Assembly (NCBI GenBank): GCA_000004695.1 | Contig: CM000154.2 | Coordinates: 1,504,001-1,568,000 of the forward strand | Source of the DNA: Dictyostelium discoideum | Taxonomy: Eukaryota | DNA length: 64,000 nt | Direction of reading: 5' to 3' | Part shown: positions 3,972 to 54,176 of the stretch, one piece after another | Layout of the letters: each line of letters opens with the position of its first letter | Numbering within the stretch: position 1 is the stretch's first letter | Position numbers and translations under genes: made by a program | Notes under the pieces: generated by a model | Told to the model about the DNA's origin: nothing | Databases searched by the model: none | Seen by the model: only the letters and a program-made list of their open reading frames with translations

Positions 3972-4034
<63 letters not shown>

Positions 4035-5463
4035 GTTGTAGGTCTAATGATGATAATGATGAACATAAAATCTTTATAAAGAAATTATTGGATGAATATT
4101 ATTCGATATTTTGTAAAGATAGATCAGCCATTTTATATTATTATTATTATGATGGATTTAATAATATCAATTTAGAAAATAAAAGTTTATACAGTGTAGA
4201 TTTAGAAGAATATTATGAATCATTTAGATTTGGAATTCCAACATTTGACTTGGTTGGCCATTTTCTTTGTGACTACCTTAACTTTTCATCATTGATAGAT
4301 ATCATGGAATATCCATATAAAAAGTCAATTAATATTTTATTCTCAAACTGTACAGATAGATTAAAAAGATTCGGTTTATAGATAAAGCCATTCAATCAAT
4401 AAAATCAGATGGTTTGCGAAATGTTGAAAATCAATTAACGAATTTCTTTCGTATGGTTGTCATGCACGACGATTTAGAATTAATAAAGTATTTTTTTAAA
4501 CAAGTTAATGGTTATCAATTAGATTTAGGTGGAAATTCACACTACTTATATAGATTTCACCCGACAATTTATATTGGTTCGGTAGATGTTTTAAATTATT
4601 TATTTGAAAATCATAGAGAATACTATTGACCATAAAAACAACTATTATTCCTATTTCGAGAATTTAGAATTATTAAAACATTTTGAAGGATTAACACTCA
4701 AAGTTCCATCAACATCAAGACTTGGTGGATACTTGCAACACTATACTAGAGGTGATAATTTTTAAAATTACGTATCACATCACCAGAAACCGTTTGTATT
4801 TGAGTACTGATTTGATTGAATCAATTTTTTCTTTCTTTCCAGAGAAAACAAGATTCCCAATCAATTTTATTCAATCTACAACTATTAATCTTAAAACATA
4901 CAAACTATTAACAACCATCGTACTTATACAAAGAAATTTCAAAGCCATAAGAATTGGACCAGATGTCTTCTCCAAAGATTTTTTAAACTTTTTAGATTGG
5001 ATATTTACAAATTATCCTAATATGATGAAAATAGGAGGAAGATTTTTTAATTAAAATCAACTACTTAAATTATTTCTTTTTCTAGCTAATAGGTTAAACA
5101 CTGGTGAAATTACTGATAATAATGAACTTGGATACATTCTATGCATCTAATTATGAACATTTTTCATGTTATAATAATTTTAAATATTTAGATTCAATGT
5201 TAAAAAATGTTAAAGATAATGAAATCTTTTTTAGGGCTATTGTAATTGCTGTTGCTAATTCAAGATTACATATTTTAGAATTTTTAAATGAAAAATGTGG
5301 TGATCTTGTAAAAGAAATAAAGAATTATAAAGGATTTAATTTTTTTCTAAATCAAGAATTTCCAAGAGATAATGTAAGGGTATCAGAATTTCTACTTCAA
5401 TTAATTAACCAAGCAGATTCAGAAAAATTATTTGGTCAAAAATCATTATTATATTTCAAATAA
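2575..5463 (+). pseudogene. Family X copy A: full-length but decayed copy of an unknown multi-copy gene family, with several in-frame stops and frameshifts.
   Basis: The 5' module 2575-2810 is about 95% identical to 6087-6320. The middle region 2930-3330 is homologous to 9600-10040. It carries an (AAT)n tract at 3971-4032 in the same position as the tract at 10044-10134. Segment 4088-4629 is homologous to the intact ORF 10186-10830 but broken (RFGL* at 4381, frame change before 4414). The tail 5104-5463 is homologous to the fragment at 12820-12960. Confidence 0.6.
3971..4032 (+). repeat. (AAT)21 in family X copy A.
   Basis: Orthologous position to the (AAT)~30 at 10044-10134 in copy C, with a different length. 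Confidence 0.85.
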
Positions 5464-9599: not shown

Positions 9600-10042
9600 A
9601 ACAATCATTAGCGATAATGAATTTTACAGAAAATTCTTTAGAAACCACCTTTTTGAATTTACTAATAGAAAAGTAATCATTTCATTAATTACATCAAAGA
9701 ATTTACAAGTATATCAACTTTTTATAGAAGAGTTTAATCATACACCATCTGTTTATGATCTAAAAATAGTAATTTCAGTTGGTGCTAACAAATTCATTAG
9801 ATATCTATTAGAACAATCACAACTAGAACAATCAAAATTTAAAATAAACATATCAAAAGATGATTTAGATAATTATAATTCAATTGATACAATAGTTGCT
9901 CCAAATAAAGTTATTTCAAATTTAAGAAAAATTATTATAAATAATTCTTCTAAATTTTTTTTTCCATTTAAATTATTAAATTTAAAGAGAGATATGTTTA
10001 AAGGATTACTATGCTATTTTAATTGTTATCAAAGTTAAAGAG

Positions 10043-10135
<93 letters not shown>

Positions 10136-10830
10136 GTTGTAGGTCTAATGATGATGATGAACATAAAACCTTTATAAAGAAATTATTGGATGAATATTAT
10201 TCAATATTTTGTAAAGATAGATCAGTCATTATATATTATTATTACGATGGATTTAATAATATCAATTTAGAAAATAATAGTTTATACAGTGTAGATTTAG
10301 AAGAATATTATGAATCATTTAGATTTGGAATTCCAACATTTGACTTGGTTGGTCATTTTCTTTATGACCACCTTAATTTTAAATCATTGATAGATATCAT
10401 GGAATATCCATATAAAAAGTCAATTAATATTTTATTCTCAAATTGTACAGATAGATTAAAAAAGATTCAGTTAATAGATAAAGCCATTCAATCAATAAAA
10501 TCAGATGGTTTGCGAAATGTTGAAAATCAATTAACGAATTTCTTTTATATGGTTGTCATGCACGACGATTTAGAATTAATAAAGTATTTTTTCAAACAAA
10601 TTAATGGTTATCAATTACATTTGGGTGGTGGGGGTGGAGATTTACATTACTTATATATGTTTAACCCAACAATTTATATTGGTTCGGTAGATGTTTTAAA
10701 TTATTTATTTGAAAATCATAGAGAATATTTTATTGATGATAAATATAACTATTATTCCTATTTCAAGAATTTAGAATTATTAAAACACTTTGAAGCATTA
10801 TATATTTCAAATAAATCTTTAAATAAATAA
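9600..10830 (+). CDS. Family X copy C: middle and C-terminal portions. The C-terminal half (10186-10830, 214 aa) is an intact ORF. Upstream part 9670-10038 is open but separated by the (AAT)n tract and lacks the 5' module.
   Basis: Homology to copy A at 2930-3330 and 4088-4700. Contains IVISVGANKFIRYLLEQSQLEQ (ankyrin-like turn). (AAT)n at 10044-10134. Confidence 0.5.
10044..10134 (+). repeat. (AAT)~30 in family X copy C.
   Basis: Same flanks (...CYFNCYQS / SCRSNDD..HKTFIKKLLDEYYS) as in copy A. Confidence 0.85.
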
Positions 10831-13709: not shown

Positions 13710-17638
<3,929 letters not shown>

Positions 17639-17808: not shown

Positions 17809-19561
17809 TTAAACCAAACTTAATATTTTAATATTACCTTGACTATTTGCAGCTAATAAAATATTTGAGTCTTTTTTCCAACAAACTGAACTAACGAATT
17901 GAGAACCATCATCATCAGTTTCTTCACCTGTACCAGAGTTTGCACCGAATCTATGAGTGACAATTGGTTTGGATAAAGTTTTGTAGTATGTGTAAACACC
18001 ATTATTTTCACTGCCACAGCAAATGTAATCACCATTAACGGTGAGACCAACGAAATTCTTTTCATTTGAATGACCAGTGAAAGTTCTAACGCAATCATTT
18101 TGATTAACATTCCATAGTTTCAAAGTACTATCAGTTGAGGCGGATATAATCTCATCCTTATTCATAAATTTGACATAACTAACCGCTTTTCTATGACCCT
18201 TGAAAATGAGTAATGGATCTTTATATTGACGAAGATCATAATAGTGAATGTGATGATCAGCCGAACCAAATGCAATTAAATTCGAAGAGCAAGGATTGAA
18301 TTTAACACAACAAATATTTGCCTTACTCTCGATTGTTGTAATTGCACGTTCAGTTGTTGTTGACCATAGTTTCACTCTTGTATCATCGGAACCTGATGCT
18401 AATTGTGTTGGATCAGTACGTGAGAAATCTACACTCCAAACTCTCTTTTCATGTTCTTCCAATGTCATAATGTTTTGACCAGTATTTGCATCCCATAGGG
18501 ATATGATACCTTCATAATCACTACTGGCAATTTGTGATTTTATATAGGTATTCCAACTTAAACAACTAATCTTTGATCTACAAGTCATCTCTTTAACTGG
18601 TGAATGAACCTCGACATTGTCACGAATTTGACTAAATTCAAATATCTTGATTTTCTTTGTAACGCCTGCAGTCGCAAAATATTCTTCATCCCTATCAAAT
18701 TCTATACTACTAACGATTGATGATGTATTAAATAAATCACCATACTTTAAAGTTGCTAAAACTTTAAATTCATTATATTTTGTAAACTTTAATAAATTTC
18801 TTGAAAAACTTAATAATCCTTTACCAACTTTTAATGATTCTATATTATTATTTAAATTATTTAAATTTGAATTTGTATTATTATTATTATTACTATTACT
18901 ATTACTATTTATTATTGATGAAGATGATGAATTAACTGAATTTGGTGACTTTAATATATTATTATTGTTATGGTTAGTTTCACTTATTATCGTTGGTGAA
19001 TCATAATCTGATTCATTATATGCTGAAAAATAACAACTTTGTAAATCATCTAAATGTATTTCAACTCTTCTTTTCTTACTTATTAATGAATTATTATTAT
19101 TATTTGTTGTTGTTGTTGTTGTTGTTGATATTGAAGATGAGGTTGCTGCTGTTGTTGATGGTGTTGTTGATGGTGGTGGTGTTGCTGCTGTTGTTGTTGT
19201 TGTTGTTGTTGGTGTCGAAGTAGTTGTTGTTGTTGGTGTTGCTGATGTAGTTGTTGCTCCTGTTGTTGTTGTTGTTGATGTTGTTGGTGTTGCTGCTGTT
19301 GTTGTTGTCGTTGCTGCTGTTGTCGTTGCTGCTGTTGTCGTTGCTGCTGTTGTCGTTGCCGTATTTATTCCATTTAAACTTGATTCTAAAATTTTATTAT
19401 TATTCGGGTTATTATTACTATTATTTACATTACTACTATTATTCGGTATATTGTTATTATTACTATTATTATTATTATTATTATTGCTATTATTATTGCT
19501 ACTACTATTATTATTGCTATTATTATTGTTACTACTATTATTATTATTATTGATATTATTA

Positions 19562-19659
<98 letters not shown>

Positions 19660-20180
19660 TGGATTGATATTATTGTTATTATTATTATTATTACTATGAT
19701 GTGGTATTGATAAAACTATATTTGAATCATCACCACCTTTACCAATAAATAAAGCATCCCTTAACATATCTAAATCACCATTCGAAAGTGATTCAGAGAT
19801 ATCTTTTTGATGTTCAATTGCTTTAATATCATTCTCTAAATAAGAGATTTGTCTCTTTAATTGTTTAAAAGTTTCCATTTTTTGTGATCTTGTTTTTTGT
19901 AGGAAATCCAATAGAATATCATATTCAACTTGTTGATCGTGTACCTCTAAATTCTTTTTCTTCTCCAATAATGTTGATACCATTAAATTTATATCATGTA
20001 ATGATAAATTCTCATTACTTAATGTATTTCTAAATTGCTTAACTGTTGGTGTTGGTAATAAACTACTCTTTACTCCAATCTTTTCAACAAATTTATTTAC
20101 TTTTTTTAATTACAAAAAAAATAATAATATAAAATAAAAAATGAAATATTAATATAGATATAGATTATTATTATTATTAC

Positions 20181-20262
<82 letters not shown>

Positions 20263-21011
20263 AAAATTTAAAATAAAATAAACATACATGCAAAATTTGG
20301 AAATATTTGTTCTCTTGTTAAATACACCATACAAATTGGACAAGTTTTTGATTTTGATAAATGAATAATAATACATTGATAACTAATTTTTTTTTTTTAA
20401 TTATTTTAGAAATATTGATTAGAATAAATATGTATATAATGATATATTGATGTATCATTTATATTAATAAATAATAATAATTACCAAAAAGAATGACCAC
20501 ATTTCGAAATGAATGGTTCTTTAATCATATCATTACAAACTGGACATAATAATAACTCGTCTACTTCTTCAGTCGCATCAGAGTTTGACTCTGAATCTTT
20601 TTTAATTTTATATGTTTTTGGATTTAATGTTGACACTTTGTTATTACTATTGTTAATACTACTGTTATTATTATTTGGATTATTTGGATTATTTGAATTA
20701 TTATTATTACCATTACTATTACTATTACTATTACTACCATTTAAATTCTCTAAATTTTCATTCATATCTATATTAGTATTATATAACAATAATGATGATG
20801 ACGATGTTGTTATAGATATCCTAGGTGGTTCTATACTTTCATTACTATTATTATTATTATTATTTGGATTATCTGGATTATTATTATTGAAATTGATATG
20901 ATTATGATTACTATTACCATTTGATATTGGTGATGAAGTTGCCATACCTGGTGAATCAACCATTGTGTTTGTTGGTGTACTACTTGATGCCATTAAATTG
21001 AATGTTTCCAT
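17809..21011 (-). CDS. COP1/RFWD2-type E3 ubiquitin ligase (RING - coiled coil - WD40). Exons 21011-20485, 20382-20288, 20099-17809.
   Basis: Exon 1 ends ...[21 protein letters not shown] + tg|GTAATT. Exon 2 is (C)[31 protein letters not shown]. Exon 3 is (L)NKFVEKIG..., then a coiled coil ([36 protein letters not shown]) and a WD40 beta-propeller ([22 protein letters not shown]...[12 protein letters not shown]...[13 protein letters not shown]...[11 protein letters not shown]...[12 protein letters not shown]...[22 protein letters not shown]). It is collinear with human COP1. A >250-aa poly-N/T/A low-complexity insert lies at 19100-19700. Confidence 0.85.
19380..19690 (-). repeat. Coding (AAT)n / (ACA/ACT)n tracts (poly-N, poly-T) in the COP1-like gene.
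   Basis: (ATT)n on the plus strand from 19437 to 19690. (TGT/TGC)n at 19120-19340. Confidence 0.85.
20163..20270. repeat. (ATT)36 microsatellite inside intron 2 of the COP1-like gene.
   Basis: Lies between the exon-2 donor (20287) and the exon-3 acceptor (20100). Confidence 0.85.
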
Positions 21012-25234: not shown

Positions 25235-25692
25235 TAATTTGGGTTTGATTTAAAAGAATGTCATGTGAATATAGACCAATTTTAAATTTTGGAAATATTA
25301 AAAATGTTTGTTTTAAAGGTAAATATTATGAATGTTCAACATTGTCATTTAAGGAACGTACATGTGGTGTATTATTGAATAAAACAATTTATGATAAAGA
25401 ACCAGTGGTTGAAATTGCAACATATGTTTGTATGGGTGATATTAAATATGAAAGATCTGTAGTTGTACATGCTGTTACAATTAAAGGTGCAATTGATCCA
25501 AATATAAAGGGAATTTATGCACCAAATTTAAGACCATCAAATGGTGATTATAGTCTAGATACCGATGACCAAGATTACAATCCTGAATTTTATTATAATA
25601 GTTCATTATCATCATCATTATATCATCAAATACTTTATTTTCCAATCATTGTAATTTTTATAAAATCGACTTTAATTTTATTAATATTTTAA
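24754..25692 (+). CDS. Small Cys-containing secreted protein with a C-terminal hydrophobic (GPI-signal-like) tail. Possibly one gene: 24754-25142 + 25257-25692 joined across a 114-bp intron in phase, or two adjacent small genes.
   Basis: N-terminal signal peptide MYNYKIILLLIIFYNFYM. A GTATGT donor at 25143 and AAAAG acceptor at 25256 keep the frame into MSCEYRP.... C-terminus ...SSLSSSLYHQILYFPIIVIFIKSTLILLIF resembles a GPI-anchor signal. Confidence 0.35.
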
Positions 25693-25814
25693 AATAATTA
25701 AATAATAATAATTAATCACTTTATTTGGGAAAAAAAAAAAAAAAAAGAATAAATAAAAAAAAAAAATTCTATTTTTGGTGAGAAATTAAAAATAGCCAAG
25801 ATTTAATCAAAAAC

Positions 25815-25845
<31 letters not shown>

Positions 25846-26777
25846 AAAAAAAAAAAAAAGGTAATAACACATATAATTTAAATCTTTATTTTGTTGAATC
25901 ATTTATTTTTTTTTTAAAAAAGCAATAAAAAAAATGAAAATAAGAAATTTTTTTTTTATTTTTTTTTTATGTATAAAATATATTCCCTACTCGTTGATCT
26001 TCATCTTATAAAAAAAATATCTTCATCTTAACAATTAAAAAAAAAAAAAATAAAATAAAAATTCTAGAATAATGTATATTCGTACACCTAATTATTTTAA
26101 TTTTTTTTTTGGTGTAACCTTTATCATTATTTAAATTTTTTTTATTTTTTAAGATGCAGATATTTTTTAAGATTGGGGACGTCTTTTTTTTTTAATTATT
26201 TTTATTTTTTTTTTTTTTTATATTTTTTTTTTTTTTATTTTTTTTTTTTATGAAAATTTTTATTTTTTTTTTTTATTTTTTTTTTATTTTAGTTGTGGTG
26301 AGACAGTTTGTTTGTTCTTTGTATGTCTATGACCAAAGTTTTTAAAAAAAAATCAATTCAACCACTTCAAAATCTCATCACAAGGGAACAATCAAAAATA
26401 AAATAATATTACGATTTTGTTTTTTTTTTTAAAAAAAAAAAATAAAATAAAATAAAATAAAATAAAATAAAATAAAATAAAATAAAACAAAATAAAAAAA
26501 AAATAAAAAAAATAAAAAATAAAAAATAATAATAATAATAATAAAAATAAGATAATAAAGATAAATCCTTTAATAATTAATTACTTATTTATTTATTTAT
26601 TTATTATTCATTTATTATTATTTTAAAAACCAAGTATTTTTTTTTTTTTTTTTATTCATTTATTTTTTATTTTTTCAATTAATGTATATGCAATTAATTG
26701 CATATACGAAAAAATAATTAAAATTAAATTTATTTCAATAATATCTAAAAATTGTAAAAACAAAAGAAAAAAAAAAT

Positions 26778-28523: not shown

Positions 28524-30820
28524 ATGAAAATATTTATTAAATTATTTAGTTTAATTAATTTATTTTTTATTAATTTTATTTATTCAAAAGAAGTTTGTAG
28601 TTTAATTGAACCAATTATTGCATTTGGACAAACAGGATGTGAAAATCCAAAAATAGAAATTGGAAATTATAGAGACTATGATGATATCATTTTCGAACCA
28701 AACCCAATTTCCAAATCATTTGAATTACCAAATAATTTTATTGTGGCTTTAGATTTTGGAATAAACTATCGAATTACATTTATAAATGTATTGATAATAT
28801 TTTTAGAAGCTTTCAAACTCATGATGGACCAAGATTTAAAAGTACCAAAGGAGCATGTTCTGAAATTGTCACTACTTATTTTGGTGAAAGTAGAGGTCAA
28901 TATATTGGTCAAAGTGATATAGAATATCCAAAATGTTCTATCCTACCGGTATGGGTAATTTAACAATTTACAATAAAGATACCAAAGAAGTTATTGGGCA
29001 GAGAGTTGAAGATTTAGACTATAATCCAACTAGTGGAAATTTTTCATTTTATTTTGGTAGTCTAATGAGATATTGTTATTTAAAACCAAATGTATTCACC
29101 TTTCATATTGAATTACCAGAACCAGTTGTTACCCTTAGAATAACTTGTAAATTCCAAGATATAGGAGGGATGAGTAGTGGTAAAACTCAAATTGACTCAA
29201 GTGAGCATATTTATAAAATTTTTATTAATGGTGATGAATTATTATATAGTCCTGATCTTATTCTCAGTCTACCATACGGGTACTCAAACTTAACTTTTAT
29301 TTTCGAAGGGATTTGTCAACCACAAACATATATTCATTTCGTTGACTCAAATGATGACTTTGCGTTATCATTTGAAATTGTTAATGTTACTGATTGCTCT
29401 CAATCAAATGGGACCAACTTGAACATTTAGATGTTGAATTTTTAAAAAGTAATAATGATCTACAAAATTATTACCCCAATTCTGAACATTGGTATTTAAA
29501 ATTACCAAGTGGATTTTATAAAATAACAATTGAAAAACTTAATGAAGATGGCTTAAGTTGTTTGGGAAGTTCTATTATTTTAATACCAACAAATTTAGAG
29601 GTACCAAATGTATCTTACACAATAATTAATAAACCAATTTGTAATGAAGACTATAATGGTTCAATATCATTTGAATATGTCACTTTTAGGGATCAAACTA
29701 CAATGGCAATTGGCAATGTTTTTTATTACGGTTATAAAACTATGTTTGAAAATGGTATGGTTATTGGTTTTAATCCTGGTCATTATGTTTTTAGTATTGC
29801 ATCTGGAAGTTGTTCTTGGGCAGTACCAGTTACCATACCAGTGGAACCAATTTCATATACTTATGAAACCCTATGGTATTATAGAAGTGATTTTTGCTCG
29901 ATTGAATTTGGCTATCAATTTAATTTCGATAATTATATGGAAGCTAATGTCAGGGTCCCTTTTTTTAAAGAAGGAAGTTATTGTAAAGGATTATTATCTG
30001 GAAGTACTAGAGAGAGTTTAAATGTTTCATTTATTATTAAAAATGTATGCCAGTTTACATTTCCAGTTTATATTGATGAATCAATTTTTCAACTAGATTT
30101 AAGTTATACAATAGCGAGAACTCCTGTTTGCGATACAGGTGGTGAAACATTTGATATTCAATTTTCAAGATGAAATTTGTTTGGGTAGTAAAAATGGTGA
30201 ACTTTTATTAAATGATGATGAATATAATTACCAGCCATTTGTTTATTCTGATTCTTACTTTAAAGTATTATTACCATTATTAAATTCAGAAGAAAGAAAA
30301 AGAATTACAACAGATTATTGTAGGAGATGGTTCACTAAACTATCTGTTGATATTGGTATTTCAATTTTCTCACTCAATATTTCGTCAAATCCCTATCAAT
30401 CAGTTATTATTCCATCAATTTTAAACTCAACTTATTCAAGTGATTTATTATTTAACTATAATATTACTACACCTTCAAATTTATCTATGCAATTCATTAA
30501 ATCTGGTGTATTAACAATTGATTCATTAAAAGAGAGTGGTCAATATAATTTAACAGTTTCGGATAGCCATTGCATCCAAACTCATAAATTTAGTATTAAC
30601 CAATGTCAATTAGATAATGGTGATGATGGTTCAACAAACATGGGTTTAGCTATTGGTTTACCAATCGGTTTGGTAGCTGCTGGCGCTACTGCTACTGGTG
30701 TTTTCTTTTATAAAACGTGTTGGATCAATAAAAACCAAAGAACTACTTCCCGAGGAACATGAAATGGAAACTGTTACTACCTTCCAAGGCGGTCGTTTGG
30801 TTGAACTTGATAAATTTTAA
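28524..30820 (+). pseudogene. Frameshifted paralog of the 31366-35274 surface glycoprotein gene, broken into at least 5 frames.
   Basis: ORFs 28524-28922, 28933-29430, 29394-30173, 30139-30762 and a final frame to 30820 are each homologous, in order, to segments of the 1302-aa protein. These include the same signal peptide, the VSYTIINKPICNEDYNGSISFEY...GSCSWAVPVT module, DSHCIQTHKF, TM NMGLAIGLPIGLV and tail HEMETVTTFQGGRLVELDKF. Confidence 0.65.
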
Positions 30821-31365
30821 TGCGTTTGAACCAAAATAAATTAAAAAAAATAAAAATAAATTAAAAAATGATAAAAAAAAAATATAGTTTGTGTGTGGTT
30901 TGTGAAATTTTTTTTTTCAAAAATTCCAAAATACCAAAAAAGGCTTAGAGTTTAGGAGAAAGAAAAAAGATAAAAAATTAAAAAATCAAAAAATCAAAAA
31001 GGTTTAGAATTAAGTTTAACAAAAAAAAATTATTATAAATACTGATATTTTGAAATTGTTTGAAAAAAAAAAAATATAATTTGATTATAAAAAAATAAAA
31101 TAAAAAAAAAATAAAATAAAAAAATAAATAAAAAAAAAAAAAAAAATCCCAAGCAATTGGGAAAATTTTCAGTTGCTAAAAAATCTATTTATAAATTTTT
31201 TTTTTTATTTTTTTGTTGATTTTCTTTTCTTTTTTTATTTTTTATTTTTTTATTTTTTATTTTTTTTTTTTAAATTTTTTTAATAGAACTTACATTAATC
31301 AACCTTTTTTTTATATATTCTAAATATAAATTTTTATTTTTATTTTTTTTAGGTAAAAAAAAAAA

Positions 31366-34300
31366 ATGAAAATTAAAATTTTTTCATTAATATTATTAGT
31401 TTCAATTTTAATTAATATTAGTAAATCAGAAATTTGTGATATTATAACACCAATATATTATTTTGATGATACAAATTGCGATCCAGATTATTATTCAGTA
31501 GTTAATCCAACAGTGTACATTCAAAATATTAAAGATTATGATTATGTTCTTGTTAGTCCTGAACCAATTTCAAGATCTTACAATGCACCAGACAACTATA
31601 TTGTTGTATTAGATTTTGGTAAAAGTTATAATTTTCAATTTGTTAAAGATGAATGTGTAGAAGATGAACCAATAATAACAAGTAATGGACCAAGATTTAT
31701 AATTACAGACCCACCATGTATTGGATCCTTAAGTACAATAGATTTCATTCCAGATCCAAAAAAGAACGGCATAAACTATACCTTCGCAATGGACAGTGAC
31801 CCAATAACGCTTCCAATTCAACTCGATTCTCCAAATCAATATATAATTGAAGTGTTTTTCGATGGTGTTTCAAAATGTAAAGAACCAATAACATTGAAAG
31901 GTTCAAATAATCCTGGAGTACAACCTAAAATTAAAACAACAAATCCAGTTTGTGGTCAATTAAATGGTGTTATTGAAATTGAAAATTATAATAATTTTAC
32001 AAGTATTGTTATTGGGTCATCAGCTCCAATTCAACCAACTAATGCAGGTTTTTACAGTGAATTGAGTGGTGGTGAATATACAATTACAACCATCGATAAT
32101 GAATGTGGAGAAAGAAGTATTTCAGTGGAACTGAATCAAGTAGCACCATCATATCATGTAGAATTTGTTGATTTCTCTTGTCCAACTTCACCAAAGATGC
32201 AATTAGTAATCAATACCACTCAAAGCTATCAAATTTTTAAAGGAGATGAACCTATATCGAACCCATTTACAGCAGATTATTACGATTCATTTTCAGTAGA
32301 ATTGGAATGTGGAGTTAGTTTTGACCTTATTATAAATTTTCCAGATTCATTTCCCCTACTTCAATACACCTATGAAGAAAGTGATTATTGTCAACCATAT
32401 ACCATTAATATAATTGGATACAACTCAACACTTTTTCCATCACTTTCAGTTAGTCAAGAAGATTCAACTATCGGATTAGATGCCAATAATTCATTTGAAG
32501 CAACAACTGGTAAAATTTATATCTTGCAAGATAATTGTTATAGTTCAGTATTGAAATTTGGTAGAACCTATCCAAAACCAATATATAAATATCTTAATAA
32601 CTCTGATTTTTGTGTTGATACTGTTGATATTCAAATTTATAACGCTCAAGATTTCTATTACATTTCATTGGCTCCATTCCAAGGTGAAGGATCAATAAGT
32701 TCAAAAAGATATTCAATAAAAGATGGTATTTTTAGAAATGTTACAAATCAAAGACTATACTTGGAGTACAGTTATAGAGGTTGCTCAGATATCTATGGTT
32801 TTGAAATTGGTAATAGTAATAGAATGGATAATGATAATTTAGATGTTGAATACAACATTACAAGATATCCAACATGTTATTATCTCTTTGGTGAAGCAGA
32901 TGTTAAATTCTATAAAAAGAATACCACTGAATTGGTAGCTTCATTTACTCAAAGTTTTTTCTATTATGGTGAAGGTGCTACTTTTGGTTTCTACAGAGAT
33001 TTCGAATATAATTGTGATGGTTCAGTAAATGGTCTCAATCTTGGTGATTTTAAATTGGAACAAGCTCATGTTAATGTTACAACAGAAACTCAACCAATAT
33101 GTAAATATTCTCAAAATGAAACTACTATACGTATCGATTCAAATACTGAAATTGCAACTTTTAAAATCAATGGTGCCAATGTTTACCCATACAATACCAA
33201 TGGCAATACTTATTATTTTGAATGTAACTCTGGTAATATCACCATTGAACTAACATTCTCAAGACAAACAGAATGCAAACAAATGACAATTTATCATTTG
33301 GTTGAACCAAAACAAGATTTCCACCTTTCATATCAAACAAACAGCGTTACAGATTGTACAATAATGGATGGTTCTATGTTTATTGATGGTTGGGATAATT
33401 TCACCTCTTTACTCATTGATGGATCTCCATATGTCCCAGGTCCAGATTTTTGGCTTGTTGATTTACAGAGTAAAGCTTATTTAATTAATTTTGTAAAAAC
33501 CTTTAGTGATGGATCAACATGTACTGGCTTTGAATATATTTTCGTACCAAGTTTACCTGCTGATATATCCTATACAATCATTAATCAACCACTATGTAGT
33601 AATGATCAAACTGGTACAGTTTCATTTGAATATGCTTCCAACTTCCCAAATCAACCAAATAGAATGCCAATTCAATATGTTTCTCGAGGTGGAATTCAAA
33701 TCAAAGGTACAATTGCAGAAAATTATTACCCTGGAACTTATTTATTCAATGTTTCATATGGTACTTGCTCTTGGGGTGTACCGGTTACATTTAATGAAAT
33801 ACCAATCGATATAACCTATAAACAAGTTTGGAATTATCTTGATGAATCTTGTCAAATTCAAGTTGGTTATCAATTCAGTGCAAATAATTCAATAGCATCA
33901 GGAAATATAGCCCCATATTCCGATGGTTTTACTTCTGTTGGTGGATTATTGTTTGGACAAGTAACAAATTCTTATTTTAATGTCGAAGTTTATTATGCCC
34001 CCTATCAAGCTTGTAAAAAGACATTTGAAATTTCATCTTATGATTCTTATGACCTTTTATATCCACAAGTTTATTATAGCATCGTTAGGAAACCAGATTG
34101 TATGTCATCTGATCATACATATGATATTAAAATTACAAATCCATCAAAATGGGCAAGTGTATCAGTTGGTGGTATGTCAATGGATTCAAATGGTATTATT
34201 AAAAATGTTGTACCCTATATGAAAATGGAAGGAACAACTCTTGGTACCAATTGTAAATATTCTAGTTTATATCGTGATGAAGAGTACAATGAAATTGCGA

Positions 34301-35274
34301 TTGAAAGTATTATTACCGATGAGACTTGTCATGGTAGTAAAAATGGTCAAATTCAATTCCCAGATGATCAATATGATTATTATGCATTCAGTATGGTTGA
34401 TGATGAAAGAGTTTTGCTACCATTGGCAAACCCACAAGATAAATATACATTTAAACAAATAACAAGTGAAAGCGTTGACATTGGTAGAGTGGGTAAAAAT
34501 ATATTAAAATCAACTTGTATGCCATTTGCCAATGCAACAATTCAAGGTAGTGAACCAACATTAATTGAAAATATTAATGATCAATGTACAGCAGATGGTT
34601 TAGGTTCAATCAATTATGAAACTTCAATTCTAGGTTTAAATCTCTTAGGTTACATTTATTTAAATGATTCTAGTGAACAACAATTTAATGGTACATTAAA
34701 TGGTATAATACCAGGTTCATATAGAGTTGCAAATTTAAGAGTTACAAATGATTATTGCAAAAGAAGTTTCAATTTATTAGAAGTAAACGTGGGTTCCTCA
34801 ATATTCTCTATTAATATTAATTCATCAATTTGTGAATCAGTTATTATTACACCATTATCTATTTCTTCAAGTTATCCAAATGCTACCTATCAATATAATA
34901 TTACATCACCCACAAATAATTTGCAGCAATACATTCAACCCGATTTATTAAAATTAGATTCATTTGAAGAATTTGGTTTATATACAGTTGCAGTTTCAGA
35001 TAGTCATTGTATTCAAACTCAAGTTTTCAATATTACCAAATGCCTAAAACTAATTGATGGTAGTAGTGATGATGATGGTGGTGTTAACCTAGGTTTAGCA
35101 ATTGGTTTACCAATTGGTTTAGTAGGTTTAGGTGCAATTATTGCTGCTAGTATTTTCCTTTATAGGAAACGTCAAAGTCCAATTAAAGCAAACCAATTAC
35201 CAGCACTTTCACATGAAATGGAAACAGTTTCAACTTTCCAAGGTGGTCGTGTTGTTGAAATAGATAAATTTTAA
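31366..35274 (+). CDS. Large (1302 aa) type I transmembrane, Cys-rich, heavily N-glycosylatable cell-surface protein with repeated C-x-G-x(2-3)-NG-x-I modules. Family unassigned (Tgr/IPT-like or SprB/HYR-like repeat adhesin are candidates).
   Basis: Single ORF. Signal peptide MKIKIFSLILLVSILINISKS. Recurrent motifs (CGQLNGVIEIENY, CSNDQTGTVSFEY, CHGSKNGQIQF, CTADGLGSINYE). TM LGLAIGLPIGLVGLGAIIAASIFLY, then a 40-aa cytoplasmic tail RKRQSPIKANQLPALSHEMETVSTFQGGRVVEIDKF. Confidence 0.7.
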   Translation: MKIKIFSLILLVSILINISKSEICDIITPIYYFDDTNCDPDYYSVVNPTVYIQNIKDYDYVLVSPEPISRSYNAPDNYIVVLDFGKSYNFQFVKDECVEDEPIITSNGPRFIITDPPCIGSLSTIDFIPDPKKNGINYTFAMDSDPITLPIQLDSPNQYIIEVFFDGVSKCKEPITLKGSNNPGVQPKIKTTNPVCGQLNGVIEIENYNNFTSIVIGSSAPIQPTNAGFYSELSGGEYTITTIDNECGERSISVELNQVAPSYHVEFVDFSCPTSPKMQLVINTTQSYQIFKGDEPISNPFTADYYDSFSVELECGVSFDLIINFPDSFPLLQYTYEESDYCQPYTINIIGYNSTLFPSLSVSQEDSTIGLDANNSFEATTGKIYILQDNCYSSVLKFGRTYPKPIYKYLNNSDFCVDTVDIQIYNAQDFYYISLAPFQGEGSISSKRYSIKDGIFRNVTNQRLYLEYSYRGCSDIYGFEIGNSNRMDNDNLDVEYNITRYPTCYYLFGEADVKFYKKNTTELVASFTQSFFYYGEGATFGFYRDFEYNCDGSVNGLNLGDFKLEQAHVNVTTETQPICKYSQNETTIRIDSNTEIATFKINGANVYPYNTNGNTYYFECNSGNITIELTFSRQTECKQMTIYHLVEPKQDFHLSYQTNSVTDCTIMDGSMFIDGWDNFTSLLIDGSPYVPGPDFWLVDLQSKAYLINFVKTFSDGSTCTGFEYIFVPSLPADISYTIINQPLCSNDQTGTVSFEYASNFPNQPNRMPIQYVSRGGIQIKGTIAENYYPGTYLFNVSYGTCSWGVPVTFNEIPIDITYKQVWNYLDESCQIQVGYQFSANNSIASGNIAPYSDGFTSVGGLLFGQVTNSYFNVEVYYAPYQACKKTFEISSYDSYDLLYPQVYYSIVRKPDCMSSDHTYDIKITNPSKWASVSVGGMSMDSNGIIKNVVPYMKMEGTTLGTNCKYSSLYRDEEYNEIAIESIITDETCHGSKNGQIQFPDDQYDYYAFSMVDDERVLLPLANPQDKYTFKQITSESVDIGRVGKNILKSTCMPFANATIQGSEPTLIENINDQCTADGLGSINYETSILGLNLLGYIYLNDSSEQQFNGTLNGIIPGSYRVANLRVTNDYCKRSFNLLEVNVGSSIFSININSSICESVIITPLSISSSYPNATYQYNITSPTNNLQQYIQPDLLKLDSFEEFGLYTVAVSDSHCIQTQVFNITKCLKLIDGSSDDDGGVNLGLAIGLPIGLVGLGAIIAASIFLYRKRQSPIKANQLPALSHEMETVSTFQGGRVVEIDKF

Positions 35275-37404: not shown

Positions 37405-37919
37405 TAGGTTGTTTCTTTTTAGCATCAATGAAATATTTAGGACAAGGTTGTGATGTTAATTTACCAATGGCACGTAAATTATTTGAAAGAGGTGCAAATA
37501 TGGAACCATATATTGAATGTGAAGATGAATTTTTATTAGAGAATAAAAATGTATTAGATTGTTGTAAATGCTTAAGTGGATTTGCACAAGAGGGTGTTGG
37601 TGGTGAAATTGAATTAGAGACTGCTTTTAAATATTATTCAAAAGTTTTAAAAACTAAAGAGAATGATTTAGATGCAATTCATAATATTGGTATATTACAA
37701 TGTGATCTCAAAAAAGATTTACAAGAAGGTTTAAAATTATTTAAAAGGGGTATGCAATTAGGTAGTGTAGAATGTACCTTTAGTTATGGTGCTTATACTT
37801 TTGATTCAAATCCAACCGATGCTTTCAAATATATTCAACGTGCTGCAAATGATGGTAACGAAGAAGCAATTTTTAAATTAGATGAATATAAATCTAAATT
37901 AAATTTATTAAAAAAATAA
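36991..37919 (+). CDS. Sel1-like repeat (SLR/TPR-like) protein, 2 exons (36991-37282, 37408-37919).
   Basis: Sel1 consensus ...ATRYFLKAASQGSAEG|GCFFLASMKYLGQGCDVNLPMARKLFERGA... and further A..Y..A...G repeats. GTAAAT donor at 37283, TATAG acceptor at 37407. Confidence 0.65.
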
Positions 37920-38058
37920 AATAAATAAAATAAAATTAAAATAAAATTAAAAAAAATCCAAATTTAGTAAATCCAACGAAAATTTAAATATCTTAAAAAA
38001 TAAAAAATTAAAAAAAAAAATTGAAATTTAATAATAATAACGAAAAAATAAATATCTG

Positions 38059-38091
<33 letters not shown>

Positions 38092-38339
38092 ATGACATTA
38101 AAAAATAAAAAATAATAAAAAAAAATTAAAAAAACGAACATTTCTCGAGAAATTTACTGCCAAACATCGAAAGAATTTTCTTTTTTTATTTCATATTTTC
38201 ATTTTTTTTTTTTTTTTGCATTTCTTTTTTCTTTTTTCATTTTTTTTAAAATATTTTTCTATTTTCTATTTTATTAATTCTAATACAATATTTTATATAT
38301 ATATATAAATAAATTTAAAAGAAAAAAAAAAAAAAAAAA

Positions 38340-39229
38340 ATGGATGTAATTAATTTATTAAAAGAATATCCAGTTTCAGTTAATTCAATAAATTTTGGAA
38401 TTAGAGATGCAGCAGTTGAAAAAGAATTATTTGAGGCAGTATGGATTCAAAGAAAAGAGCCAACCTATAATTATGAAGCAGTATTTGTTTTGAGTGAAAT
38501 GTGGAAAGTTCCAATCAATTATTTAGTTGGTCGTTTAAGATGTGAAGCAGCCCATAAATTATTATTGATAGAGAAGAATATGGAAGAGGCATTGTATTAT
38601 TATAAATTAGCAGCATCAGAGAACCAATCGGTTGAAGCATTATTTTCATTATCAAATTTGAAATTGAATATCATTCAAAATTTACAAGCATATGAAGAAT
38701 CTTTAGTACACCTTAAGCAAGCTGCAAACTATCCACATAAAATTAAATACGATGATCAAGTATCAATAACAAATAAATATATTATCGAATCTCAATTAAT
38801 GTATGCTAATTTATTATTCGAAGGTTTGTCTGGTAAAAAAGATTTAAATGAAGCAAAGAAATATTACGATTTGGCTTGTGAGGGAAGTTTAAAAAAGAGT
38901 GCACCATTCGCAAAGTATGCTATCATCCTTTGTAGAGGTGATGGTGGTGATATCATTCCAAAAGATACCGAAAAAGGTTTGACAATTTTTAGAGAGATCA
39001 TAGAAGATTCTGGTATTGAAAATACTCAACCAGGTATCCTTTATTTATATGGTACTTTTTTATTTGAAATTAATAAAAATGAAGGTATTCAATTCATTAG
39101 AGTCGCTGCTAAATTTGGTTATCCAACTGCAAAAGAAAATATACTCGAATTTGAAAAAAAATTAAATGATAATAATAACAACAATAATAATAATAATACC
39201 GAAAATGATAATAATAATAGTAATAGTAA

Positions 39230-39274
<45 letters not shown>

Positions 39275-39314
39275 GAAAAATAGTAAACAGACCAAAAAGA
39301 ATAATTTATGTTAA
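38340..39314 (+). CDS. Sel1-like repeat protein, tandem paralog of 36991-37919, with an N-rich C-terminal tail.
   Basis: Shares N-terminal architecture with the upstream gene (xxFGIxxxxVxxELxEVxxxxxxxxxEVxxxLSxxxKxPIxYLxxRxxCExAH). Single ORF of 324 aa. Confidence 0.65.
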
Positions 39315-47649: not shown

Positions 47650-51978
<4,329 letters not shown>

Positions 51979-52679: not shown

Positions 52680-53035
52680 ATGATAAAATTAAATTTCTGG
52701 ATAAAATCCATTATTATTGGATTAGTATCATTTATTTATATTTATTTATTTGTGTTTAGTGTAAACAAAACAAAAGATTTGGAAAAATTAGAAATTGAAA
52801 ATAATAAATTAAATTTTGAAAATGAAAAATCAAATATATCAATATTAAAATATATAGAAACTATTAATAATTTAAATAATACAATTAAAAATTTAAATTT
52901 TTCAATTGAACAATCAAAACAACAATTAATTCAAATGGAAAATAGTTTTAATAAAGATTTAAAATTATTACAAAATTCATTAAATGAATGTGAAGAAATT
53001 AAAAATAAATTAAAAAATAATAAAAACAATAATAA

Positions 53036-53094
<59 letters not shown>

Positions 53095-54176
53095 TATTAT
53101 TAAATAATAAAAATGAAATTATACCGATTTTAATACCAACATATAATAGAACAAATTATTTAGAAAAAACAATTAAATCAATTTTAAAAATTAGAGATAA
53201 AAATAAAGAAAAAATTAAAAAATTCCCAATAATAATATCACAAGATATTTGTAAAAAGAATGATAATCAAAATGAAAATGAAAATTGTAAAGAAATGAAT
53301 GAATATTTAGAGGAAATTAATTTAAATTATCAAGGTATAATAGTATTAAAGAATTTACAAAATGGTAATTTAGTGTTGAATTCAACATATGAATCAATAT
53401 CAAGACATTATAAATGGGCATTGAGTCAAATATTTGATAAATTATCATTTGATAAATTATTAATTGTTGAAGATGATTTAGAAGTTTCATTAGACTTTTT
53501 AGATTATTTTGAAAAGGTATCACCATTATTAGACATTGATAAATCGTTATTCTGCATTTCAGCATGGAATGATAATGGTAAGAAACCATTAACAAATGAG
53601 AATCAAAAACAAGCGATTACTCAATTCTATAGAACTGATTTCTTCCCTGGACTAGGTTGGCTCACAACTAATAGATTCTGGAATGAAATTAAGGATAACT
53701 GGCCCACCCAATACTGGGACGACTATTTAAGACAGCCATCAGTGATTAAAGGAAAACAGTGTATCAGACCAGAGATATCACGTGTTAAAAATATTGGTAT
53801 CAGTGGTGCAACCAGTCAACAAGTTTATGAAAATTATATAAAAGAAATCATTAGTATCACAGATGACCAATACCCAATTAATTATAGTGATGTTGATATC
53901 CATCAATTAATAGAACCAACATATTCAAATAAATTAAAAGAATCAATAACAAATGCAAAATTAATTTATCCATATGAAATTGAAACTTTTGGTTACAAAA
54001 ATCAAACTTTAAAAATCATATTCAAAGATCAATATGATTATCAAATGTTAGCCAAACAATTTGGTTTAATTGATGACCAACGTGAAGAAATTCAACGTAC
54101 ATCTTTTAAAAAAATAGTTTCATTTTATTTTAAATCAAATTTAATTTATTTTATACCAAATCAAATTAATTGGTAA
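52680..54176 (+). CDS. GT13 N-acetylglucosaminyltransferase I (GnT-I/MGAT1-like), a type II membrane protein.
   Basis: N-terminal signal-anchor IKSIIIGLVSFIYIYLFVF. Coiled-coil stem with poly-N. Catalytic core LLIVEDDLEVSLDFLDYFEKVSPLL...FCISAWNDNGK...YRTDFFPGLGWLTTNRFWNEIKDNWPTQYWDDYLRQP...CIRPEISR, collinear with animal GnT-I (EDD motif). Confidence 0.85.

Follow-up and report, generated by a model that had tools for sequence, protein, structure and literature searches.

Among the adhesion receptors of Dictyostelium, the type I membrane proteins SibA to SibE are said to be "similar to integrin beta". The Sib proteins have ectodomain repeats of a kind known elsewhere from the surface proteins of bacteria. 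Their cytosolic tail, short and conserved, makes contact with partners inside the cell, and they carry a VWA domain as well as NPxY talin-binding motifs. In the Bacteroidota, adhesins of the type IX secretion system (T9SS) such as SprB of Flavobacterium johnsoniae form long multi-repeat surface filaments, in which units of about 76-78 amino acids (aa) with a predicted immunoglobulin (Ig)-like fold follow one another in tandem. A further comparison is offered by the allorecognition proteins TgrB1 and TgrC1. These type I glycoproteins of the dictyostelid cell surface contain Ig-like domains in tandem and are encoded by fast-evolving adjacent paralogs with frequent pseudogenised copies; Tgr proteins have TIG/IPT domains, and their genes share one divergent promoter in a hypervariable locus of extreme polymorphism (PMC12745789). 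Here we describe a tandem gene pair in a 64,000-nucleotide stretch of Dictyostelium discoideum DNA (hereafter the window, to whose positions coordinates refer unless another sequence is named): gene A (DDB_G0288437, 31366-35274, plus strand), which is intact, and directly upstream of it copy B (28524-30820, plus strand), a decayed paralog that is annotated in part as DDB_G0288455. With a probability of roughly 80%, we read the two as an old tandem pair of SprB-type surface glycoproteins found only in dictyostelids, of which A has stayed intact under purifying selection and B has decayed in the AX4/AX2 lineage, an ordinary case of gene loss.

The segment 28524-35274 was identified as sequence of D. 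discoideum AX4 by the exact protein match of the open reading frame (ORF) at 31366-35274, which is identical to DDB_G0288437 (XP_636753.1, Q54IX7) of that strain. This single exon encodes a type I membrane glycoprotein of 1302 aa with 33 cysteines and 23 N-x-S/T sequons for N-glycosylation. We compared it with the same synteny block from six other Dictyostelium genomes and with the assembly of strain AX2-214; the six comprise L001 and L002, both of them isolates recorded as D. discoideum, the cryptic sister species "D. cf. discoideum" (L003), D. citrinum (L004), D. dimigraforme (L005) and D. firmibasis (L006). Orthologues of 1301-1322 aa occupy the same position in all six, and gene A is intact in every genome examined. 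The protein begins with a hydrophobic signal peptide (aa 1-21, MKIKIFSLILLVSILINISKS; 31366-31428) that every orthologue and every intact B copy shares, and that is probably cleaved after aa 21. It is followed by a membrane-distal N-terminal domain (aa 22-110; 31429-31695) with three cysteines and no canonical repeat, which is 44% identical between A and B, against about 35% over the full length, and whose motif Y.V.LDFG..Y...F....C is discernible in a family member from D. purpureum. The bulk of the ectodomain (aa 111-1228; 31696-35049) is an array of 14 SprB-type Ig-like repeats of 70-88 aa in tandem, each with two invariant cysteines about 51 residues apart. A short acidic stalk leads from the array to a single transmembrane segment (aa ~1242-1266; 35089-35163), placed at the Kyte-Doolittle maximum and conserved throughout the family, and the protein closes with a cytoplasmic tail of 36 aa that ends in TVS.F.GG[KR]...[IL]D.F-COOH (35164-35274, stop codon included).

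Pfam returned no match above threshold for the full protein A or for its orthologues. The name "MRH domain-containing protein", given automatically in UniProt/UniRef to Q54IX7 and also to one member from P. violaceum, has no support from domain content: the Pfam MRH-type families (CIMR, Man-6-P_recep, PRKCSH) were not matched in protein A at E<=1, the PROSITE profile itself not having been run.

When the window is searched with protein A (tblastn), a collinear series of paralogous matches appears at 28536-30817. They occupy frames 3, 1, 3, 1 and 2, their E-values lie between 7e-41 and 1e-7 and their identities between 26 and 57%, which is far beyond chance. Together with the alignment to intact alleles, they delimit B as the remnant of a gene for 1299 aa. 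The reference for its lesions was an anchored pairwise alignment to the intact B alleles L001:5510-9409 and L002:5503-9399, each of them a single ORF (1299 aa in L001, 1298 aa in L002) with its own signal peptide, transmembrane segment and tail, and 35% identical to A over the full length. The AX4 remnant differs from these alleles in ten places, and every one of the ten is a deletion in AX4. Together they remove 1603 bp, or 534 codons, exactly the amount by which the 2297-bp remnant falls short of the 3900-bp allele. Five of the deletions shift the reading frame (7, 1, 22, 182 and 2 bp), and the other five preserve it (1059, 21, 12, 294 and 3 bp).

Along the plus strand, the native start codon, the signal peptide and the first 86 codons of B are still present in AX4 and are followed by lesion 1 (28781-28782), a frameshift in which one ATAAATG tandem unit of 7 bp has gone. 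Lesion 2 is the 1059-bp in-frame deletion of allele codons 116-468, about 4.5 repeats, and its junction (28856-28862) falls on TGTTC(T/A)G, seven nearly identical nucleotides at the cysteine codons of two different repeats. Lesion 3, an in-frame loss of 21 bp after 28917, lies between TATAGA direct repeats and is followed after 28937 by lesion 4, a 1-bp frameshift (28917-28938 for the two together). A 12-bp in-frame deletion at 29140-29141 (lesion 5) precedes the frameshifting losses of 22 bp at 29409-29410 (lesion 6) and of 182 bp at 30166-30167 (lesion 7). Lesion 8 (30298-30299) removes 294 bp, or 98 codons, in frame between ATAGA direct repeats, lesion 9 (30410-30411) removes 3 bp in frame, and lesion 10 (30711-30712) shortens a run of A from six to four, the 2-bp loss throwing the conserved tail (30698-30817) out of frame. 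The frames along the remnant follow the order 3, 2, 1, 3, 1, 2, in agreement with the tblastn pieces, and the frame-corrected AX4 remnant contains no stop codon due to point mutation. A preliminary description of the window had proposed a large Cys-rich type I surface glycoprotein at 31366-35274, and upstream of it a decayed paralog with the same order of landmarks, at least four frameshifts and a length reduced by about 550 aa. The 1302-aa ORF with its signal peptide, 33 cysteines, one transmembrane segment and 36-aa tail, the collinear tblastn pieces, the five frameshifting deletions and the 534 lost codons bear this out, and the motifs quoted there (VSYTIIN..C..G.(V/I)SFEY, G(S/T)CSW(A/G)VPVT and HEMETV(S/T)TFQGGR(V/L)VE(I/L)DKF) occur in both copies.

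The same description had asked whether the frameshifts would vanish on resequencing, that is, whether the real genome has two undamaged copies and the frame changes are homopolymer errors of sequencing or assembly. Lesion 10, where a run of six A after 30711 has lost two bases, could by its type have come from such errors, and lesion 4, after 28937, is likewise the loss of a single base. However, lesion 10 is the only one of the ten in a homopolymer context, and the remaining lesions are deletions of 3-1059 bp, which base-calling errors do not make. Moreover, the independent long-read assembly of AX2-214 shows 0 differences from AX4 over all 2297 bp of the remnant, so every frameshift persists in it, and ten short-read contigs from Logan carry the same broken ORF of 259 aa, the most complete of them showing the whole series of ORFs (132, 165, 259 and 227 aa). 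Since the AX2 assembly and the Logan contigs agree with AX4, the lesions are not sequencing errors, and the chance that both copies are intact is negligible. The segment 28524-30820 is a real pseudogene remnant, whose disabled frame is reproducible in independent data.

Gene models nevertheless exist over this remnant. DDB_G0288455 (XP_636752.1, Q54IX8) is a 539-aa protein in AX4, its counterpart in AX2 (KAM9947245.1) has 565 aa, and both lie at 28933-30762 of the window. They could be taken to describe an upstream copy that is still functional in a shortened form, a truncated membrane protein whose introns bypass the changes of frame. Two annotation pipelines have indeed called a multi-exon gene here, point-mutation stops are missing from the frame-corrected remnant, and its ratio of nonsynonymous to synonymous substitution rates (dN/dS) is 0.48, below 1. 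Against this, the models begin at an internal ATG (28933) and have no signal peptide, their two "introns" cover exactly the sites where losses of 22 bp and 182 bp have shifted the frame (lesions 6 and 7), in sequence that is coding in the intact alleles, and they end in the wrong frame after the 2-bp deletion, so that the family's conserved tail is lost. A product begun at the native start would run into the first frameshift after 86 codons, and the intact orthologous genes consist of a single exon. A working short gene is therefore improbable, and DDB_G0288455, judged from its structure, appears to be a gene-finder artefact laid over a pseudogene, for which re-annotation as a pseudogene is due.

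The history of the pair was followed in a neighbour-joining tree (Kimura distances, 200 bootstraps). The A proteins, that of D. firmibasis included, form one clade with 100% support, the B proteins of D. discoideum, D. citrinum and D. dimigraforme another with 100%, A and B are united with 100%, and the D. purpureum protein is placed as the outgroup with 99%. On this topology the tandem duplication dates from after the split of D. purpureum and before that of D. firmibasis. B is intact in the two diverged D. discoideum isolates, in D. citrinum and in D. dimigraforme (L001, L002, L004 and L005). In the cryptic sister species, B (L003:5651-9247) is a pseudogene with other lesions, namely a 182-bp deletion at allele nucleotide 1479, a 1-bp deletion at nucleotide 2964, an 87-bp deletion and four in-frame stops, and with a dN/dS of 0.94; this pseudogene is independent of the loss in AX4 and apparently older. 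D. firmibasis lacks B altogether, and not even a remnant of it can be detected in the interval from the MFS transporter gene to A. Independent losses of B have thus occurred at least three times, once each in the AX4/AX2 lineage, the cryptic sister species and D. firmibasis. A search for homologues with the B protein listed intact B copies only, and not the known fragments, and is unfit for counting losses. In the D. discoideum lineage the B branch is long: it measures 0.35, where A has only 0.13 for an equal stretch of the tree. B was a redundant, faster-evolving and dispensable duplicate, which in AX4/AX2 decayed by deletions, several of which have short direct repeats on either side, and its disappearance there was probably a neutral loss of redundancy.

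Two database records of B copies deserve mention here. The L003 pseudogene is annotated as three "genes" of 468, 337 and 288 aa. The deposited model of the D. dimigraforme B gene (L005:5280-9489, P0005) has a mispredicted 5' exon, "MGVEVCNIET", whereas a single ORF that starts near L005:5536 and runs through unbroken encodes an ordinary signal peptide, MKYIIIYLFIITNICLLNFIYSKEVC.

What the ectodomain is made of was addressed at the level of the single repeat. When 70 units from five proteins were aligned, the only invariant columns were the two cysteines, at position ~8 and about 51 residues later. Scanned singly with Pfam, these units matched one family more than once, SprB (PF13573), with 4 of the 70 units and a best E-value of 0.0024. 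With a profile built from the ectodomain, 58 matches were obtained among 1.84 billion representative proteins, and many of those that were not full-length are large Bacteroidota proteins. We scanned 17 of these partial matches with Pfam: eight have significant SprB repeats, six of the eight also the T9SS sorting domains CHU_C or Por_Secre_tail, and a ninth (P0022) has HYR and CHU_C domains, its HYR domains lying outside the region matched by the profile. The best bacterial match (P0018) reached an E-value of 1.4e-43 over 26 matched stretches. The bacterial unit has a period of 76-77 aa, cysteines at 8 and 58, and the end motifs C.G..[ND]G.I and G.Y.V.[VI].D..GC. Aligned to 48 such units with hhalign, the amoeba repeat profile gave a probability of 79% and an E-value of 1.5e-5 over 70 columns with both cysteines aligned; against a single bacterial protein the result was weak (probability 20%), and against the sequences of the PDB the profile had no match. 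A model of one repeat, built from the 70-repeat alignment, is an Ig-like beta-sandwich, and the fold of the repeat is accordingly predicted to be Ig-like.

The amoeba repeats and the units of the SprB-repeat T9SS adhesins (P0018, P0031, P0039 and P0047 among them) are thus alike in their tandem arrangement and predicted fold, in starting with C-x-G-x(2-3)-[ND]G-x-I and ending with G-x-Y-x-[VI]-x-[VI]-x-D-x-x-(G)C, in cysteines at positions 8 and 58/59, and in the long filamentous architecture to which they contribute. The amoeba protein differs in having only 14 repeats, diverged below the Pfam threshold and most of them without the GG..PY.Y.W core, and in that a signal peptide for the endoplasmic reticulum, sequons, a transmembrane helix and a cytoplasmic tail take the place of the T9SS sorting domain. 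Pfam finds neither CHU_C nor Por_Secre_tail in protein A, whose C-terminus is a transmembrane helix with the 36-aa tail, as expected for a eukaryote. By these comparisons we class the ectodomain as an array of 14 divergent eukaryotic SprB-type repeats of about 77 aa. Of the "SprB/HYR-type" resemblance suggested in the preliminary description, the SprB half is upheld by the reverse profile search and the hhalign probability of 79%, and the HYR half falls away, since no family member and no isolated repeat has a Pfam match to HYR (PF02494).

Among the 58 matches of the profile search, full-length collinear relatives occur in dictyostelids only (D. purpureum, Polysphondylium violaceum, Heterostelium album, Synstelium polycarpum and, with a distant second paralog, D. 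dimigraforme). The C-terminal motif is kept in the A and B copies, in two proteins of P. violaceum, in one of H. album and in two EukProt dictyostelid proteins (besides L001-L006, the carriers are P0012, P0020, P0041, P0014 and P0015), and it is missing in D. purpureum P0010 and P0019, D. dimigraforme P0024 and H. album P0030. The conservation of the tail exceeds that of any part of the ectodomain and therefore implies an intracellular partner. Since the tail ends in [DE]-x-Phi and contains E-x-D, it may act in sorting or in the binding of an adaptor. The surface-protein family itself is undescribed in the searchable literature. Further relatives extend this picture. A second and far more distant branch of the family, of 1361-1436 aa and with another tail, is found elsewhere in group-4 genomes (P0024, D. 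dimigraforme ACTA71_001624; P0019, D. purpureum), and a counterpart in AX4, outside the window, is likely. In P. violaceum, two members share a contig of 23 kb and bear locus tags that follow directly on one another, CYY_007242 and CYY_007243 (P0028, P0016), so that tandem duplication of the family recurs outside group 4.

Adjacent intact and decayed copies of a large surface protein readily call to mind the tgr genes, and the preliminary description had drawn this analogy. The pair would then be a polymorphic ligand and receptor under diversifying or balancing selection, and its intact or decayed state would reflect a turnover of haplotypes as at tgrB1/tgrC1. Between AX4 and the other "D. discoideum" isolates, the identity of the A proteins is 92-95%. 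This has the look of hyper-polymorphism but is due to genome-wide divergence, these isolates being genetically diverged from AX4 and some of them cryptic sister species (PMC12745789); nucleotide divergence is 2-4.5% over the entire shared region of 22 kb. The synonymous divergence (dS) between AX4 and the other isolates, three diverged ones in all, is 0.067-0.088 in A and 0.090-0.094 in the flanking MFS transporter gene. As the dS of A is not above that of the flanking gene, there is no local excess of old variation and no signal of deeply coalescing haplotypes, and by this control we reject, among these isolates, excess polymorphism or balancing selection at A. The dN/dS is 0.37-0.48 for A and 0.48-0.61 for B between species, against 0.04-0.05 for the MFS transporter gene, and, taken repeat by repeat, no region is consistently above 1. 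By these ratios, A and B are fast-evolving extracellular proteins under weak purifying selection.

The allorecognition analogy keeps some attractions. Both proteins are large, of type I and on the surface, with Ig-like repeats; their genes are adjacent, B is present or absent among isolates, protein evolution is fast (dN/dS 0.4-0.6), and the D. firmibasis orthologue is named "TgrB1" in UniRef. Yet TIG repeats define the tgr family (PMC12745789), and TIG/IPT (PF01833-type) domains were not matched, at E<=1-10, in A, in four orthologues and paralogs, in the 70 isolated repeats or in seven distant family members. The genes stand in tandem on the same strand and do not diverge from a shared promoter, their synteny is perfectly kept in seven genomes whereas the tgrBC locus is hypervariable (PMC12745789), and the dS of A and the repeat-wise dN/dS values just given show neither old nor diversifying variation. 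Finally, a copy lost three times is not an obligate partner. We consequently hold a tgr-like function of the locus to be very unlikely, and the analogy should be given up. The UniRef name itself (A0AAN7U0K7, P0004), in a protein with no TIG match, is unsupported by domain content.

With these alternatives weighed, we return to the reading of an old dictyostelid-only pair in which A persists and B has decayed, and several observations count against it. Pfam scores SprB on the whole amoeba proteins at 13.8-16.2 bits, against a gathering threshold of 28, and what carries the homology of the repeats is the profile search in the reverse direction, with an hhalign probability that is moderate. Of the checks proposed in the preliminary description, the Pfam scan thus left SprB below threshold and TIG and HYR without a match, and structure prediction with AlphaFold succeeded for the single repeat and failed for the ectodomain: the AlphaFold2 model of the full ectodomain, from an alignment of five sequences, is unusable (predicted local distance difference test score, pLDDT, of 40), and a rod shape is therefore extrapolated from one repeat. 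The tree was built by neighbour joining only. The dN/dS of the AX4 remnant is not distinguishable from that of functional B copies (0.24-0.61) and so provides no date for the inactivation, and on sequence grounds alone the remnant may still give rise to a residual truncated product. In the searchable literature, neither gene identifier (DDB_G0288437, DDB_G0288455) and neither UniProt accession is mentioned.

Seen in this way, protein A would stand on the surface of the amoeba as an extended, glycosylated and disulfide-stapled rod, capped by the N-terminal domain at its tip and anchored by the single transmembrane helix and the short conserved tail. Its architecture, and the role that SprB-type arrays play in bacteria, suggest by analogy an adhesin or receptor, which would bind the substrate, other cells, or particles and bacteria through its distal domains, while the conserved tail would couple it to trafficking or adaptor machinery. 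The likeness to SibA-E is one of function and architecture only; no sequence relationship is to be expected, and the A/B family differs from them in having neither a VWA domain nor NPxY motifs.

As to where the repeats came from, we can offer only a tentative and rather unlikely proposal: a bacterivorous ancestor of the amoebae may have captured, in ancient times, an SprB-type array of the Bacteroidota, to which a eukaryotic signal peptide, a transmembrane segment and the tail motif were added, and which would now serve as a receptor for adhesion or the binding of prey. In its favour, the full-length relatives are confined to dictyostelids among the matches, and the identified matches from elsewhere are mostly T9SS cargo of Bacteroidota, some two thirds of the 58 having been identified. 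The alternatives are vertical descent of an old type of Ig-like domain, or convergence, and either may apply. SprB is listed among the domain abbreviations of a survey of amoebozoan G-protein-coupled receptors (PMC10445921), the sole mention that we met in the literature, and for that reason vertical descent keeps its place among the explanations.

The surroundings of the pair are stable. The GC content of the window is about 22%. The pair lies on chromosome 5, and its two members, both on the plus strand, are separated by an AT-rich intergenic spacer of 545 bp (30821-31365), which presumably holds the promoter of gene A. The order SDR, a gene of unknown type, MFS transporter, B, A, SNARE, Sel1, Sel1, PKS is kept across the seven genomes, and other neighbours are WD40/Gemin5-like, transglutaminase-like, GNT-I and RNB genes. 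The genes around A and B (WD40/Gemin5-like, SDR, MFS, SNARE, the Sel1 pair, PKS and so on) are housekeeping genes and give no hint to the function of the pair. The two Sel1-repeat genes (267 and about 320 aa; 37428-39314), themselves in tandem, lie directly downstream of the SNARE gene in all seven genomes. An AT-rich segment at 25675-26675, intergenic or intronic and situated upstream of the MFS transporter gene, differs from the other isolates by numerous indels and by 8-10% mismatch. This exceeds the local background by a factor of 3-4 and is probably alignment noise of low-complexity sequence. Several short stretches match one another and the simple-sequence tracts of other loci in blastn (3972-4080, 10031-10141, 15594-15774, 19414-19700, 20117-20275, 39151-39309, 50125-50485 and 52995-53118); presumably they are codon repeats of the poly-N/Q type and simple repeats typical of coding and intergenic DNA in Dictyostelium.

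For the reference annotation, the analysis brings corrections: DDB_G0288455 is to be read as a pseudogene remnant and not as a 539-aa protein, and the names "MRH domain-containing protein" and "TgrB1" are unsupported. It also removes an interpretation in terms of allorecognition that was tempting but wrong. The common laboratory lineage AX2/AX4 is without a gene that some of its wild relatives keep, and the pair shows cleanly, in nature, how a tandem paralog that can be dispensed with has disappeared on three separate occasions. An uncharacterised surface family can now be defined across the dictyostelids by its SprB-type repeats and its conserved C-terminal motif, whose members are candidate receptors for adhesion or particle binding in a model phagocyte, and in which a eukaryote may have put adhesin modules of bacteria to new use.

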